This document shows, one piece after another, positions 6,001-12,000 of a DNA stretch of 64,000 bases. The stretch covers positions 102,045 through 166,044 of the forward strand of contig JBBISH010000003.1 of assembly GCA_037441385.1 (NCBI GenBank), given 5' to 3'. The position numbers are program-made. The DNA comes from Myxococcales bacterium (GTDB lineage Bacteria; Myxococcota_A; UBA9042). Within the stretch, counting starts at the first letter, position 1. The number at the start of each line of letters is the position of its first letter.

Positions 6001-9000
6001 GCCCGCCGCGAGGTGGGCAAAGGACCGGGGGTGGCCATCACCGGCAGCCAGCACGCCCTGGGCGAGTGGCTCAAGACCGGGGTGCTGGCCAGCCCGCAAC
6101 TGAATCGCCGGTTGGCCTTGGCCAAGGAGCCGGCAATAAAATCGGCAGGTTAGTAGGGCGGCGCGGTGCCTACCCCTACCTACCGCGCGAGCGACCCTGG
6201 GCGGAGGGTCGGAGCCTCGCAGACGGCCGCCCGACGACAGAGGAGTGACCCATGCATCTGCTCAAGATCCTCATGACCCTGGCCATCGGTACCGCCCTGG
6301 CGCTGCCCGCGTACGCGGACGGCCGTGGCGGCGGCAATCCCAACCCCGGCGCGGCTCCGGCGGCGGGCGCGGCCCCGGCTCCGGCCAAGGACGCCCGCAG
6401 CGGCGGTGGCACGACGGCTCCGGCCGCGGCCAAAGACAGCCGCAAGGGCGGCGGCGGCGAGATGAAGGAAGGCAAGCCGGCCAAGGTCAAGAAGGAAAAG
6501 AAGGCCAAGAAGGCCAAGAAGGCCAAGTAGCACCCGCGCCGCGATCGCGACCGGCCGACCGCTTGGCAGGCCGGTCGCGATCGGCGAAGCTTGCGGCATG
6601 GCGCGCGCGATCATCGGCATAACTCGTCTCCATCCCGGGCGCGACGCCGATCTGCCGCTGCCGCGCTACATGACGAGCGGTGCCGCCGGCGCCGATGTCG
6701 TGGCAGCACTCGACGCCCCAATCACCTTACAACCACTTGAGCGCACAGCTATTTCGACTGGCCTCGCCCTGGCAATTCCGCCGGGCTTTGAAGTGCAGGT
6801 ACGTCCGCGATCCGGCCTAGCCCTGAAAAGCGGCCTGACGATTTTGAACGCCCCCGGCACGATCGACAGCGACTATCGGGGCGAGTTGCGCATCCTACTC
6901 GTGAACCTGGGCCACGAGCCGGCGCAAGTGGCCCGCGGCGATCGCATTGCCCAGTTGGTGATGGCAAAAGTGGAACAGGCCGAGTTTGAGGAAGTTGCCA
7001 GCCTCTCTGCCACGGAACGCGGGCAGGGAGGGTTCGGCTCGACGGGGCAGAAGTGATCCAGCATCGCCACACAATTCGGGGTTTGCTGGCCGTGGTCGGG
7101 TTGGTGCTGGCTGCGCTCGTCGCGGCCCCGCTGGCCTGGGCCGCCGAGCCGCCAGCGCCCGTGGAACCGCCCCAACTGGTCAAGCCCGTGGAACCGACGT
7201 ACCCGGCCGAACTGGCCGGGCGGGGTGTGGCCGGCAACGTTGTCGTCGAGATCGACATCGACGCGACGGGCGCAGTCGTCGCGGCCAAAGTGGTCGAGTC
7301 GGCGGGGCCCGAATTTGACGCGGCGGCCTTGGCCGCGGCCAAACAGCTGCAGTGGCGGCCGGCCAGCCAGGGTGGCAAGGCCATCCCGGTGCGCATCCGT
7401 TATCGATTTGCCTTCCGTCCGCCCGTGCCGGCCGAGCGTCGTGGGCCGGCCGGGTCACAAGGCCGCTATGATCGGCGCGAGGTGGAAGTAGCGCCCGCGG
7501 GCGCGAGCAGCCTGGAGGGCGCCGTGATCGAACGCGGCACCGGGCGCCCCGTGGTCGCCGCGCCCGTCGCCGTGCCGGCCCTGGGGGTCGAGACCACCAC
7601 CGACAGCGATGGCCGGTTCCGGTTTGGCCTACTCAAACCGGGCACCTACGAGTTGTACCTGCCCGGCACCGACCACAAACCGCTGCGTCAGACCGTCGCC
7701 ATTGCCGGCAAGGGCACGCTGACGGTGCGGCTCAAGGTCGAACGCCTCTCGTACACGATCTACCGGGCCACCGCCCAAGCGCCACAAGAGGCCGGCGAGA
7801 CCTCGCGGCGGAGCCTGGGCGTCGAGGAAATTCAGCGCATTCCCGGCACTCAGGGCGACGCGTTCAAAGTGGTGTCGAATTTGCCTGGTGTGGCGCGGCC
7901 GGTGGCCGGCTCGGGCTTCTTGGTCGTGCGCGGTTCGGCGCCGCAAGACACCTTGATCACGGTCGAAGGCGTCCACATTCCGCTAATTTACCACTTTGGC
8001 GGGGTGTACTCGATCCTCAACACCGACCTGCTCGAGAGCATCGACTTCTACCCCGGCGGCTATCCGGTGCGCTACGGACGGCAGTCCGGCGGCCTGATCA
8101 ATGCCCGGCTGGCGACCCCGCGCGAGCTGGACGGCTGGCACGGTTATGCCGAGGCCAACGTCTTTCACGCCGGCTTCCTGCTCAAGGGCCCGCTCGGCAA
8201 GGACACCCAGCTGACGCTGGCGGCACGGCGCTCGTACATCGATGCGTTCTTGAGCTTGGAGCCCATCGCCAAGCTGCTGCCCCTGACGCTGGCGCCGCGC
8301 TACTACGACTATCAAGCCAAGCTGGACCATACGTTTTCCGAGCGGACCTCGGCGACGATGTTCTGGTTCGGCAGCGACGACAGCCTGACCGCCGTGCTGG
8401 CCAACCCACCGGCCGCCTTCCCGCAAGCGCGCGGCGACATCGAGACCCGCACCTCGTTCCACACCCTGCTGGGGATCCTGCGCCACCGCGGCGACGGCTG
8501 GACCTCGACCACCACGCTGGCCGGGACCTTGGGCACAGGCAACGCCAACTTTGCCGATCTGTTCCGATTTGACCTGTTCAATCGCGAATACACCCTGCGC
8601 CAGGACTTCACGGTTGGCGACGGCCCGGTCCAGCTTCGGCCCGGCTTGGACATCCTGTGCAACCCCTTCAGCATCGAAGTCTATGCACCGCCCATCCCGG
8701 GCACCGGCGAGCGAGGCACCGGCGGCGGTGGCCCCGGGGGGATCCCGCGCAGCATTCTGGCCAAACAAGAAGGTATCCTGATCGCGCCGTCTGCGTACTT
8801 CGACAGTGTTTTCAAGCTGCGGCCGGGGTTGGAGGTGGTGCCGGGCCTGCGACTGGACCTCTTCCGCGGACTCTCGGGCGGCGAGGGCCTGACCCCGCGC
8901 CTGAACACCCGCTGGACGGCAATGCCGGGGCTGACGCTCAAGCTGGCGTCGGGGATGGCGCTGCAGCGGCCGCAGCCCCAGGAGCTGAGTGATCGCTTTG

Positions 9001-12000
9001 GCAATCCGAACTTGCAGCCCTTCCGCAGCTACGAGACCGCGGGCGGAGCCGAGTGGAAGGTCAGCGAAGCCGTGGACCTGGACGTGCAGGTGTTCCGCAA
9101 AGATCTTCGCGATTTGGTCATCTACCCCAAGGGCGTGGTCGCCCAGAAGCCCATCAACGCCGGGCGCGGTTGGATCACGGGCGCCGAGGTGCTGCTGCGC
9201 CACCGACCGGTGGGGCGCTTCTTTGGCTGGATCGCCTACACGCTGCAACGTGCTGAGCGACAGGATCGGCCGGGCGACCCGGTGCGGCTGTTCGGCTGGG
9301 ATCAAACCCACATCTTGACGCTGCTGGGGTCCTACAAGCTGCCCGACAACTGGGAAGTGGGCCTGCGTTTCCGCTATGTGACGGGCAACCCCACCACGCC
9401 CGTGGTGACTGCGGTCTACAACGAGCAGACCGACACCTACACGCGGGTGCAATCGCCCAATCTGCTGAGCGAACGTCTGCCGGGCTTCCACCAGCTCGAC
9501 GTGCGAATCGATAAGAAGTTCGTTTTCGACAGTTGGCTACTGAACGTATACCTGGATGTGCAAAACGTCTACAACCACGGTAACCCAGAGAATATCCAAT
9601 ACAACTACGATGCGACCCAGTATACCTACGCCACGGGCCTGCCGATCATCCCGAGCCTGGGCATTCGCGGCGAATTCTAGTATCGTCAGCTAGTTGCGCT
9701 CCGCCCAGCTACCTCGAAGCACAAACATTGTCGCCGGCAAACGCCTGTGCTAGCGTGGCCAACCGCTGCCAACTCCACGGCGCGACGCGGATCCCCAATG
9801 GGTTCTGCGTCGTGCGCTTCTGCATCGTGGAGTTCTGCACCATCAAGTTCTGCACCATCAAGTTCTGCACTGCGCGGACTTGGCGTGCAGGTCTGCTGCC
9901 AGTCGGCGCGGCTTGGCAGCGCAACGACCGCTAGACGCAACCTCCGGTAGAGCGACGATGGGAACCGGTCCTGTGGAATTGCTGAGCAGTCTGCCCGTCA
10001 TGGCCAAACTGGACGACGTGGGTCGCCAGGAGCTGCGGCGGTGGCTGCGCATCATCCCAGTGGACGTCGGCGAGGTCGTGTTCCGGCAAGGCGAGCGCGG
10101 CGGTGCGCTGCTGTGGGTTCTGCAAGGCATCGTCCGCCTGGAGGCCGCCGATCACGAGGGGCAGAGCCGCACGATTTGCAGCGCCCTGCCCGGCGAAGTG
10201 ATCGGCGAACTCGCCTACGGCGAACTGTGCACCCGAGCCACCACGGCCATTGCCGCCAGTGCGGTGGTGCTGGCCGAGCTGACGGACTCGGATCTTACCC
10301 TGATCGAGCGGCGGTCGCCGCGGGTGGCTTCGCAAGTGATTTCTTGCCTGACGGCGTGCAACCTGCGGCGGTTGCGCCACATCAACCGCGAGCTGGACCA
10401 GGTGGTCGAGCGCCACATCGCCCAGCCCGTGCGGTCGCCCACGGCCGAAGTCGCGCAGGGGACCAGCGCCGCACGACTCTGGGCGCGGCTGGCAGGGCGC
10501 AGGCCCGGGCAAGGGGAGTAGGCCAGCATGGGACAGGCGGTCCTAGAGCAGTTGCGCGCCAATCCGGCGACGGCCAAGTGGCCTGAAGCGGACTTGCGCG
10601 TTCTGGCAGGCGCCGTGGTCATCGAGCGCCACCGCCAAGGCACTGAACTTTGCCGGCAAGGGCGGCCGGGGGCCTGTTGCTGGCTGATCATGGACGGCAA
10701 GTTGGAAGTAGTGCGCGCCGTGGCCGGCCATCGCATGGAGGTCGCGCGGGCCAGCGTGGGCGAGTGGGTTGGTCAGCTGGCGCTCATCGACGGCGCTCCC
10801 CGGTCGGCTACAGTGATCGCGGCAACGGACATCGAGGTCCTGGTCATGACGCGCGACGTCTTTGAGCAACTGCTCGCGTCGCAAGCCCCAGTGGCGTTGC
10901 GCTTCCAGCGACACGTCTCGATGACCGCAAGCGTGAACTTGCGCGCCGCCACGGAGCACTTGGCCAAGGTCCACGGCCTGATCGCGCGCCATGGCCATTT
11001 GTCGCCGGCCGACCTGTACACGGTTCGCGAGCGCCGTGGGGTGGCTCGTCCATCGCACCATGGCATCCTGTGGACCCAGCCGCAGCTCGAACACCAAGCC
11101 GAGGCCGCCAAGGCCAAGCGCAGCGGGGACGAACGCAAGGGGGACGAGCGCAGCGGGGACGAACGCAAGGGGGACGAGCGCAGCGGGTACGAGCGCAAGG
11201 GGGACGAGCGGTAGCCGCGGCGACGGGCAAACTCGCCAAGCCAGCCAGCGCGTGGACGGCGTGCCCGGCCATGGGCCGCAAGCAGGCCGCCGCTAGCTCT
11301 TGGGTGGCACGACCTTGCCCTTCCACACCGCGCGGCGAATCGCATCGCAGTCGCAATGCCACTCGGGCGGGGCCTGTTGGCACACCAGCGCCGCGATCAG
11401 CCGATGACCAGCACCGTTGGGGTGCACGTGGTCAAAGTCGTGGTATTGCTTGGCCAAGAACTGTTGGGGCACGGCGCGCGCGGCTTGGACCCAGCGGTCC
11501 TTTTCGGCGACTTGCTTGGCCCAGGGGCTGCGGGCGAACGTGTCGGCCAGGTCCTCGCGCGGTCGCAGCGGCGCACTGGAGCCCGCTCGCAGCGGGCTGC
11601 GCCACAGGTCGATGCCAATAGCAGGTAGTTCGCCGGGTTGCCACTTCTCAGGGTCGCCGTCGCGCTGGGCCACTCGCCGCCCAAACGCCTGACTTGGCGT
11701 CAGATGCCCCAGGACGAACTCGACGACGTGCTCGGTCGCGCGGTGCAGGCGCAGCGCCTTCCAGCCGTCGAAGCGCGGATCGTCGTCGCTGCCCCAAGGC
11801 GATAGGGACAGCGCCAGCACCTTCAGCCCGGCCTGGTGGCTTTGCACAAACAGGCGGCTCAGCCACCACGACGTCGACTCGGGCGACCACACCGAATTCA
11901 ACCCGCCCTGGATGAACACCCACGTCAGGCCTTGGCGCGTCGCGGGTTCGTCCAAGACGGTCGCCTTCAGGTTTTTCAGGATCTTACTGGCCCCAGCCCC

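Follow-up and report, generated by a model that had tools for sequence, protein, structure and literature searches.

Many TonB-dependent transporters compete for few TonB molecules in the cell, and the steps by which TonB locates, binds and releases a transporter are still debated. In the window analysed here, a stretch of 64,000 nucleotides from the genome of a Myxococcales bacterium, one gene encodes a transporter which carries the docking domain of TonB itself, tethered near its putative TonB box. The question is what such a domain does on the receptor. Natural transporters of this make-up are a ready-made probe of TonB engagement, and whether the domain competes with TonB, recruits TonB or anchors the receptor, any outcome would be informative on the mechanism.

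Gene and domain organization

The transporter gene starts with GTG, and its first bases overlap the stop of the dUTPase gene before it by 4 nt. The features of the locus are as follows.

6598..7056, + strand: dUTPase gene, 152 aa (Pfam dUTPase, 99.7 bits)
7053..9680, + strand: whole gene of the TonB_C-bearing Oar-type TonB-dependent transporter, single ORF, 875 aa plus stop
7053..7142, + strand: signal peptide spanning residues 1-30 (cleaved behind AWA as judged by eye; model helix 2-24)
7170..7418, + strand: cis TonB C-terminal domain, residues 40-122 (Pfam, phmmer, Foldseek, AlphaFold2 pLDDT)
7419..7508, + strand: flexible linker, residues 123-152 (pLDDT <50 at 126-146; alignment block)
7509..7739, + strand: CarboxypepD_reg N-terminal extension (NTE), Ig-like, residues 153-229 (Pfam 40.1 bits; Foldseek)
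7746..7775, + strand: putative TonB box LSYTIYRATA, residues 232-241 (inferred from its place between NTE and plug)
7803..8102, + strand: plug domain, residues 251-350 (Pfam Plug, 32.8 bits)
8103..9677, + strand: beta-barrel, residues 351-875, Phe at the end (PF00593, 75.3 bits; model strands; Foldseek)

The protein thus runs from signal peptide through TonB_C, disordered linker, CarboxypepD_reg, TonB-box-like motif and plug to the barrel, and all four Pfam matches exceed the curated cut-offs. The first-pass annotation had described a full TonB_C right after the signal peptide, followed by NTE, plug and barrel, and this order held, with TonB_C (PF03544) at 62.1 bits (cut-off 24.6; residues 47-122; model 2-78 of 79), which makes it a canonical and complete domain. 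CarboxypepD_reg (PF13620) scored 40.1 bits against 32.3 (residues 153-227), Plug (PF07715) 32.8 against 23.9 (residues 251-346) and TonB_dep_Rec_b-barrel (PF00593) 75.3 against 27 (residues 462-839). By eye the N-terminus looks like a Sec signal peptide with cleavage between AWA and AE, and AlphaFold2 places a helix at residues 2-24. CarboxypepD_reg lies between the signal peptide and the TonB-box position, as in the Oar/SusC subclass, and by Foldseek the fold of the NTE resembles the transthyretin-like domains of carboxypeptidase D and the SusCdex NTE (9hfj).

The AlphaFold2 model of the whole protein had a mean pLDDT of 85.3 and pTM of 0.76, and Foldseek matched it to BtuB, FecA, PfeA and FepA with probability 1.0 and TM (target) of 0.6-0.8. 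The figure of 22 strands for the barrel is one on which DSSP gave no reliable count. The C-terminus, read by eye as GIRGEF, ends with an aromatic residue. Linker residues 126-146 are disordered in the model (pLDDT <50), and the linker motif RR...GRYDRR is kept in the alignment block of the closer subfamily only. These results show that the product of 7053..9680 is an ordinary TonB-dependent outer-membrane transporter of Oar/SusC type.

The cis TonB_C domain

The domain has the YP motif at Y50-P51 and the terminal strand VRIRYRFAF at residues 113-121. By phmmer it pairs with solved TonB C-terminal domains (2k9k, 6i97_D, 6fip). With 6i97_D, the C-terminal domain of Pseudomonas aeruginosa TonB solved in complex with FoxA, it aligns along nearly the entire chain: residues 11-86 of the 90 are covered in sequence (phmmer), and the fold matches with TM (target) of 0.81 over 89 alignment columns (Foldseek). 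Other TM (target) values were 0.76 to 1u07_B, with 1u07 among the top fold matches, and 0.78 to 9dc4_T. The pLDDT of the domain is >90 both in the whole-protein model and in that of fragment 31-262. In an alignment of 59 sequences P40, P51, V63, G73, D89 and A95 are invariant; the YP motif is retained, as is the alternation of hydrophobic residues in the final strand. Mean pairwise identity was highest in the plug (0.60), followed by TonB_C (0.45), barrel (0.42) and NTE (0.37). By this alignment, the cis TonB_C is constrained like the rest of the protein, with conservation equal to that of the barrel.

Can the domain act as an energy transducer? Of the features of TonB, the protein has the C-terminal domain PF03544 and lacks the uncleaved transmembrane anchor and the proline-rich spacer; sequence and alignment showed no Pro-rich region and no membrane anchor in the 875 aa. 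The transporter is therefore unable to transmit the energy of ExbB-ExbD by itself. TonB of Escherichia coli, P. aeruginosa and Vibrio anguillarum (TonB2; 1u07, 6i97, 6fip, 2k9k) shares fold and family with the window domain over its whole length, but there the domain follows an uncleaved anchor and a proline-rich spacer coupled to the ExbB-ExbD motor, while here it is attached to an outer-membrane protein. In a tree of TonB_C domains the cis copies were not separable from genuine TonB domains, so the tree is uninformative on specialisation of the cis domain.

Paralogues and distribution in the phylum

TonB_C was found in three of the four plug-bearing transporters of this genome. The two paralogues reported before were recovered: one at C17:24154-26772 (872 aa, 51% identical; TonB_C 67.1 bits at residues 44-119) and one at C4:68229-70835 on the - strand (868 aa; TonB_C 42.0 bits at residues 70-129). 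The C17 protein gave no PF00593 match at E<=0.01, yet it aligns with the window protein over residues 17-875. The C4 copy indeed adjoins exbB-exbD-tonB, as had been stated: downstream lie ExbB (107.3 bits), ExbD (102.5 bits) and a TonB of 270 aa (TonB_C 64.2 bits), which is a real TonB (C4:66271-67083) with a transmembrane segment and a poly-Pro stretch. The same order, exbB-exbD and then tonB, is seen at a related locus (L030), and exbB/exbD lie within 3 kb at 15 of 80 related loci. As the genome also has genes for separate TonB proteins, this one among them, the cis copy is accessory and no substitute for TonB.

Matches to residues 40-350 at E<=1e-10 were obtained in 163 of the 201 genomes sampled from the phylum, and named relatives belong to the Myxococcota. 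In at least 107 of the 201 genomes one open frame of about 840-1320 aa runs from TonB_C to the plug without stops (a match that begins at query position <=25 and reaches >=300 within one frame; a lower bound, counted among the 150 matches listed, with 264 further matches beyond). The make-up is thus common across the phylum, in agreement with the earlier claim, and the class is not rare, as it makes up three of the four transporters here and is present in no fewer than half of the genomes sampled.

Relatives at 49-50% identity (P0085-87), and likewise two MxcH-like proteins (L007, L008), are without TonB_C, yet each retains a signal peptide of its own along with box and plug. By these sequences the cis TonB_C behaves as an accessory, absent from some close relatives. 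Such loss would also fit a domain without function, either what is left of a decaying fusion between a tonB and a transporter gene, or a pair of genes misread as one. But the frame is single and stop-free in at least 107 genomes, and the export signal is solely at the very N-terminus, with TonB_C beginning about 10 residues after the cleavable signal peptide; inspection of the protein sequence revealed no export signal ahead of the NTE. The domain is also conserved like the barrel and confidently folded in the models. So the remnant or artefact explanation is largely refuted by the conservation data, and we regard it as highly improbable.

Of 20 regions taken from related genomes, 10 have the dUTPase gene immediately upstream, but so do only 5 of 80 wider loci; its conservation as a neighbour is limited to the orthologue. 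The genes flanking the window transporter encode the dUTPase and cytoplasmic cNMP-binding proteins, and no siderophore genes were found beside it.

Comparison with known systems

The first-pass annotation cited a 2019 survey of 34,893 transporters (PMC6434023) as naming five architectures that combine CarboxypepD_reg, STN and AMIN; sections 15 and 30 of the survey bear out this wording and do not name TonB_C. The survey sorted its proteins by four chosen Pfam families only, none of them TonB_C, so that its silence is no proof that TonB_C proteins are absent among the 34,893. The suspicion that architecture lists already hold such proteins was justified. Precomputed Pfam labels show the architecture on 115 of 120 homologues listed, and it is already in public annotation, including the curated NCBIfam entry MxcH. 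Full-text literature searches found no paper discussing TonB_C on transporters. The present data correct the impression of five N-terminal architectures only, which this widely cited survey gives (PMC6434023).

MxcH (NF038079, TonB-dependent siderophore myxochelin receptor) has TonB_C directly after the signal peptide as in the window protein, and the first ~106 positions of the model are TonB_C. A true equivalog (1046.6 bits against the cut-off of 925) carries TonB_C at residues 38-113 ahead of plug and barrel, and has a proline-rich linker where the window protein has CarboxypepD_reg. PF03544 is labelled on 114 of 120 homologues listed, some also with PF13620; named carriers belong to Archangium, Sorangium, Polyangium, Hyalangium, Labilithrix and Pendulispora. 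The class includes MxcH, the siderophore receptor of cultured, genetically tractable myxobacteria. The window protein itself is not MxcH (71.4 bits against 925, the match confined to model positions 1-106).

Oar of Myxococcus xanthus (MXAN_1450) and SusC-type transporters share with it the CarboxypepD_reg NTE, plug, barrel and dedicated Ton systems nearby, with a TonB box where the window protein has its putative one, but no TonB_C is named among their architectures in the survey passages concerned; according to the same source Oar exports a protease (PMC6434023). In Bacteroides thetaiotaomicron, TonB7 and TonB11 are described with a CarboxypepD_reg-like domain and TonB_C in one protein, but they are listed as TonB homologues (249 and 449 aa) and have neither plug nor barrel, whereas here both domains are on the receptor (PMC10350073). 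For GltG/GltJ (AgmX/PglI) of the myxobacterial gliding machine, from the same phylum, TonB_C-type domains are described in a setting other than classical TonB, though in inner-membrane, motor-coupled proteins (bioRxiv 10.1101/2020.07.22.216333). This genome encodes two proteins of GltG/GltJ type. Membership of the window protein in NF033768 was rejected (20.9 bits against the cut-off of 40).

Possible roles of the cis domain

The single activity well established for the TonB_C fold is capture by beta-augmentation, in which its edge strand takes up a short strand: for TonB the TonB box of a transporter, for its homologue TolA a strand of TolB, colicin or g3p. For this reason we interpret the cis copy as a tethered module for strand binding with an accessory role. 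That it controls access to the TonB box is our best guess, but a tentative one. By local concentration the likeliest ligand would be the transporter's own box, ~110 residues downstream, with the box of a neighbouring transporter as alternative, and the disordered tether (126-146) together with the NTE would give the domain its reach. By holding the released box it might tune when, or whether, the real TonB engages, either capping the box against futile pulls or latching it once a pull is over, and the power for transport would still come from the normal ExbB-ExbD-TonB system. The fuller version is possible but rather doubtful: a working TonB-box binder on the outer-membrane side would gate the Ton cycle by capping its own box or chaining neighbouring transporters through theirs, and the real TonB would then engage under certain conditions only. 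If true, it would be a new control layer over TonB-dependent transport, in most transporters of the phylum and in the myxochelin receptor.

The candidate box LSYTIYRATA (232-241) occupies the expected place between NTE and plug, and in distant family members the same alignment columns hold classic E-I/V-V-V-x-G motifs. Both AlphaFold2 models show these residues as coil without strand pairing, at a pLDDT of ~74 (whole protein) and ~66 (fragment 31-262). Such undocked models argue only weakly against stable docking of the domain on the box in cis, because the input alignments had just 58-59 sequences each. The box motif ER.SY..YR is also kept in relatives without the cis domain, so there is no sign of the box adapting to it. 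A permanently tethered competitor of TonB would, moreover, carry a cost unless easily displaced, which counts against box-capping.

TonB C-terminal fragments crystallise as dimers, TonB homodimers in vivo have been reported, and affinity to peptidoglycan has been proposed for the TonB C-terminus. The cis domain may serve in positioning or recruitment with no TonB box involved, binding the C-terminal domain of the real TonB as a heterodimer (so that the transporter has its own landing site while TonB is scarce) or fastening the periplasmic end of the receptor to the wall through peptidoglycan. The long flexible tether in the model would suit reaching either. But TonB is monomeric in solved TonB-transporter complexes by the entry titles of 6i97 and 9dc4, and the literature search on peptidoglycan affinity gave nothing usable. 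We hold this role to be conceivable, with considerable doubt.

Beside strand capture at the box, the domain could bind a TonB-box-like strand of a third protein, a periplasmic, inner-membrane or lipoprotein partner, like STN of FecA, FpvA and FoxA; a regulator, cargo for export as with Oar/PopC, or a Ton-linked lipoprotein would be candidates, though we hold this explanation to be unlikely. In the STN transducers a small globular periplasmic domain with flexible linker also lies N-terminal to the TonB box, and passages on FoxA describe this topology of the signalling domain (PMC11658791), but the fold of the N-terminal domain differs. The window protein had no STN (PF07660) match at E<=0.01 and so is not a FecA-type transducer, and no sigma/anti-sigma genes were found near it, with no ECF sigma or FecR gene seen, which speaks against such docking. 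Oar, as described in the survey passages, shows that the transporter class is able to handle protein cargo (PMC6434023). A Myxococcota-specific lipoprotein gene adjoins the TonB_C transporter gene at 23 of 80 loci, and the lipoprotein has a conserved strand-like motif FDP.S.i..LRVLAV right behind the lipid-anchor Cys. It is a candidate partner, but the link is confined to the more distant subfamily, and no such gene lies beside the window gene or the C17 paralogue. Its lone homologue in this genome is the last gene of the second exbB-exbD-tonB operon.

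Domain composition of the transporter

The transporter gene lies behind a dUTPase gene in the same orientation, and its product showed matches to five Pfam families, each exceeding its curated cut-off:

6598-7056 (+), dUTPase gene (Pfam dUTPase, 99.7 bits), whose stop shares 4 nt with the GTG start of the transporter gene
7053-9680 (+), TonB_C transporter gene, a single ORF of 875 codons with GTG start
residues 47-122, TonB_C (PF03544), 62.1 bits, model positions 2-78 of 79
residues 153-227, CarboxypepD_reg (PF13620), 40.1 bits, with CarbopepD_reg_2 overlapping (35.6 bits)
residues 251-346, Plug (PF07715), 32.8 bits
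residues 462-839, TonB_dep_Rec_b-barrel (PF00593), 75.3 bits

Residues 1-30 look like a Sec signal peptide with its end between AWA and AE, and the C-terminal residue is Phe (both judged by eye). From its position N-terminal to the plug and behind the sole signal peptide, the TonB C-terminal domain carried by the transporter itself (residues 40-122, the cis domain) is periplasmic. It is without the anchor and spacer of TonB and therefore cannot transduce energy. Its tether consists of a disordered linker of about 30 residues and the CarboxypepD_reg N-terminal extension (NTE), which places it about 110 residues upstream of the motif at the TonB-box position. In the alignment the YP motif of the cis domain is kept, as is its last strand. 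The linker motif RR...GRYDRR had been considered as a possible ligand; as a feature of the whole class it was dropped, because the alignment keeps it in the closer subfamily only.

Predicted structure

The AlphaFold2 model of the whole protein, based on an alignment of 59 sequences, had a mean pLDDT of 85.3 and a pTM of 0.76. In it, residues 41-121 form a compact domain (pLDDT >90), residues 126-146 are disordered (<50), residues 154-229 make up a beta-sandwich and residues 232-252 are coil; plug and barrel follow. Foldseek matched the whole model with probability 1.0 to BtuB, FecA, PfeA, FepA and other solved transporters.

A fragment model of residues 31-262 (pLDDT 90.6) was separated cleanly into two domains in the fold search. 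The second domain was similar to carboxypeptidase-D transthyretin-like domains and to the N-terminal extension of SusCdex (9hfj), while the first matched TonB C-terminal domains over the whole length:

6i97_D (FoxA-TonB complex), TM 0.81, 89 columns of a 90-residue chain
9dc4_T, TM 0.78
1u07_B, TM 0.76
6fip, 1xx3 and 8rd6, further fold matches to the cis domain

In sequence search the cis domain also matched TonB2 of V. anguillarum (2k9k, E 6.8e-7) and TonB of P. aeruginosa. The whole-length fold matches, together with the sequence matches to solved TonB domains, confirm the claim of the first-pass annotation that the transporter has a complete TonB C-terminal domain; it is neither a fragment nor a chance match.

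Transporters and TonB proteins in the genome

Besides the transporter gene of the window, which is part of C3, two further transporters of the genome carry TonB_C:

C17:24154-26772, paralogue of 872 aa, 51% identical to the window protein, TonB_C 67.1 bits
C4:68229-70835 (-), paralogue of 868 aa, TonB_C 42.0 bits, LP in place of the YP motif

On the same strand after the C4 paralogue there are genes for ExbB (107.3 bits), ExbD (102.5 bits) and a TonB of 270 aa with membrane anchor, poly-proline stretch and TonB_C (64.2 bits). Both paralogues and the exbB-exbD-tonB neighbours had been named before, and they were found as described. A search for Plug in the whole genome (6.6 Mb, 91% complete) detected four ORFs, the three TonB_C transporters and a plain one (C7, around 49561), which means that three of the four detected Plug-bearing transporters have TonB_C. 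There were seven sites with TonB_C above the cut-off, three in transporters and four in TonB-like proteins (C4, C7, C76, C8). A genuine TonB is thus encoded in the genome, and the cis copy is no substitute for it.

Weak TonB_C matches (23 bits) were also present in two large proteins with long low-complexity periplasmic regions, C5:6047-7798 (-) and C99:4960-6528 (-). They look like the gliding proteins AgmX/PglI (GltJ/GltG), and GltG/J are described as having TonB_C domains in a passage of a preprint (bioRxiv 10.1101/2020.07.22.216333).

Distribution

In a collection of 5.8 billion proteins, 665 matched the window protein at E<=1e-10. Among the 120 matches listed, with 36%-100% identity and the window protein itself on top, 115 had PF03544 together with transporter domains; the source records, of Myxococcales or Deltaproteobacteria MAGs, give them no names other than "TonB-dependent receptor" and "TonB family protein". 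When residues 40-350 were used as query, 163 of 201 genomes sampled across the phylum matched. At least 107 of the 201 had one stop-free frame from query position <=25 to >=300, a lower bound drawn from 150 of the matching rows, with 264 more beyond them. This frame from TonB_C to plug bears out the earlier statement that the make-up is common across the phylum. The best 80 loci in species-representative genomes all carried myxobacterial or generic names. Among their sources were Minicystis rosea DSM 24000 (two copies) and Sorangium sp. So ce726, both with complete genomes, as well as Polyangium, Byssovorax, Nannocystaceae, Kofleriaceae, Bradymonadaceae and Myxococcaceae.

Clusters in the ESM Atlas combining TonB_C, CarboxypepD_reg and Plug in proteins of about 370-380 aa had Gemmatimonadota as commonest phylum (score 0.92), a hint that the architecture also occurs outside Myxococcota. 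The top 150 in a search of representatives with a TonB_C-NTE profile were proteins of giant size that contain 9-73 CarboxypepD_reg repeats. The totals of this profile (469,598, 143,679 and 16,404) count single domains, and the search says nothing on the fused form. A maximum likelihood tree (86 columns) that combined 60 cis domains with 9 genuine TonB_C domains left 33 of 66 forks open and showed mutual attraction of long branches; it speaks neither for nor against a single origin or a specialisation of the cis domains.

MxcH and database annotation

The best NCBIfam match of the window protein was the curated equivalog model of the myxochelin siderophore receptor MxcH (NF038079), at model positions 1-106 only; the score was 71.4 bits, where the cut-off is 925. 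Because the match covers only these positions, the MxcH model itself starts with TonB_C. A true MxcH (1046.6 bits) was found in a related genome. It has, in order, a signal peptide, TonB_C at residues 38-113 (46.8 bits), a proline-rich linker, a TonB box, the plug and the barrel, and unlike the window protein it is without CarboxypepD_reg. PF03544 was present in 114 of the 120 listed homologues of this MxcH, several of them with PF13620 too. Many homologues named MxcH are in cultured Archangium, Sorangium, Polyangium, Hyalangium, Labilithrix, Pendulispora and Haliangium.

TonB_C was absent from two MxcH-like receptors (L007:1228-3615 and L008:1492-3744 (-), 746-834 bits on the MxcH model), and likewise from three relatives in the window protein's own family (P0085-P0087). 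Since true MxcH has the domain without CarboxypepD_reg and its MxcH-like relatives do not have it, the cis TonB_C is bound neither to one transporter lineage nor to the NTE, and even close relatives differ by its gain or loss. MxcH is a TonB_C-bearing receptor with an assigned import substrate, and it makes the mechanism of TonB_C transporters directly testable in cultured myxobacteria. As a feature of transporters the cis TonB_C is real and conserved, it extends across the phylum, and the databases contain it, even under a name; the earlier worry that domain databases already hold such proteins was justified by the MxcH family and by PF03544 in 115 of the 120 listed homologues of the window protein.

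A full-text literature search, with most subscription journals and the original MxcH work outside its scope, returned no paper in which a transporter with TonB_C is described. The matches to "N-terminal TonB" examined there all had the TonB box as subject by title and abstract, and "MxcH" gave one unrelated paper only. The survey PMC6434023 took 34,893 proteins with PF00593 and PF07715 from Pfam 31. As noted earlier, TonB_C is not mentioned in the survey's passages on architecture, where classes are combinations of PF13620/PF13715, PF07660 and PF11741 only. This scheme would put TonB_C-bearing proteins in the Oar class or in the class with no extra domain; because of this sorting method they were overlooked, not excluded. 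Nearest to the subject, besides the preprint on GltG/J, were two papers. The 2025 study of TolA/TonB evolution (PMC12204202) scanned the same Pfam families, and its retrieved passages report no fusions. TonB7 and TonB11 of B. thetaiotaomicron are TonB homologues described as combining CarboxypepD_reg-like and TonB_C domains (PMC10350073, in part).

Possible role of the cis domain

Mean pairwise identity was 0.45 for TonB_C, 0.42 for the barrel, 0.37 for the NTE and 0.60 for the plug; by this measure the cis domain is conserved as much as the barrel. That it is a functionless remnant or an artefact is contradicted by these conservation data and is very improbable. The cis copy would be an accessory module, whose activity may be that of its fold, strand capture by beta-augmentation, and the most available ligand would be the transporter's own TonB box. 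The putative box is LSYTIYRATA (232-241), with E-I/V-V-V-x-G in the same alignment columns of distant members.

As best single reading we tentatively suggest that the cis domain is a cap or latch tuning TonB engagement. However, residues 232-241 were unpaired in both AlphaFold models, of the whole protein and of fragment 31-262. The same box motif is kept in relatives without the cis domain, and no co-adaptation of box and domain was seen between relatives with and without it. A complex prediction of cis TonB_C (35-130) with box and plug (226-350) scored 0.00 in a run without controls and weighs neither way. A somewhat more doubtful possibility is that TonB is recruited through dimerisation of both C-terminal domains, or that the domain contacts peptidoglycan. 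It is rather unlikely that a third protein docks on it in the fashion of an STN domain.

Neighbouring genes

Many members are found together with dedicated Ton genes: ExbB or ExbD was found within 3 kb in 15 of the 80 loci, and one locus, L030:1352-5878, has the order exbB-exbD-tonB-TonB_C transporter. M. xanthus may have the same layout, as the locus tag of its essential transporter MXAN_0821 adjoins that of the TonB gene MXAN_0820 in the passage of PMC6434023 concerned.

The pairing of dUTPase with TonB_C transporters stated earlier held for orthologues, with dUTPase upstream in 10 of the 20 regions retrieved from related genomes. Paralogues and more distant members do not show it (5 of the 80 wider loci). 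The linkage is confined to orthologues of one family, and no functional link is drawn.

A lipoprotein family of 310-470 aa, restricted to Myxococcota, adjoined the TonB_C transporter gene directly in 23 of the 80 loci (L083:5480-6442, L084:5615-6751 and 21 others). It had no match in Pfam and NCBIfam, and shows a lipobox Cys followed by a conserved strand FDP.S.i..LRVLAV. The sole homologue in the genome (C76:17031-18449, equal to L005:1738-3156) stands at the end of a second exbB-exbD-tonB operon, one without transporter. The family may be a candidate Ton-linked partner.

Around the transporter gene, the following were also observed:

6252-6530 (+), ORF of 92 aa with signal-peptide-like start, Gly/Ala/Pro-rich middle and Lys-rich tail, no Pfam match
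9880-10521 (+) and 10528-11214 (+), tandem genes for proteins with cyclic-nucleotide-binding domain, just 3' of the transporter; the second protein ends in a repeated GDERKGDERSGDER... tail
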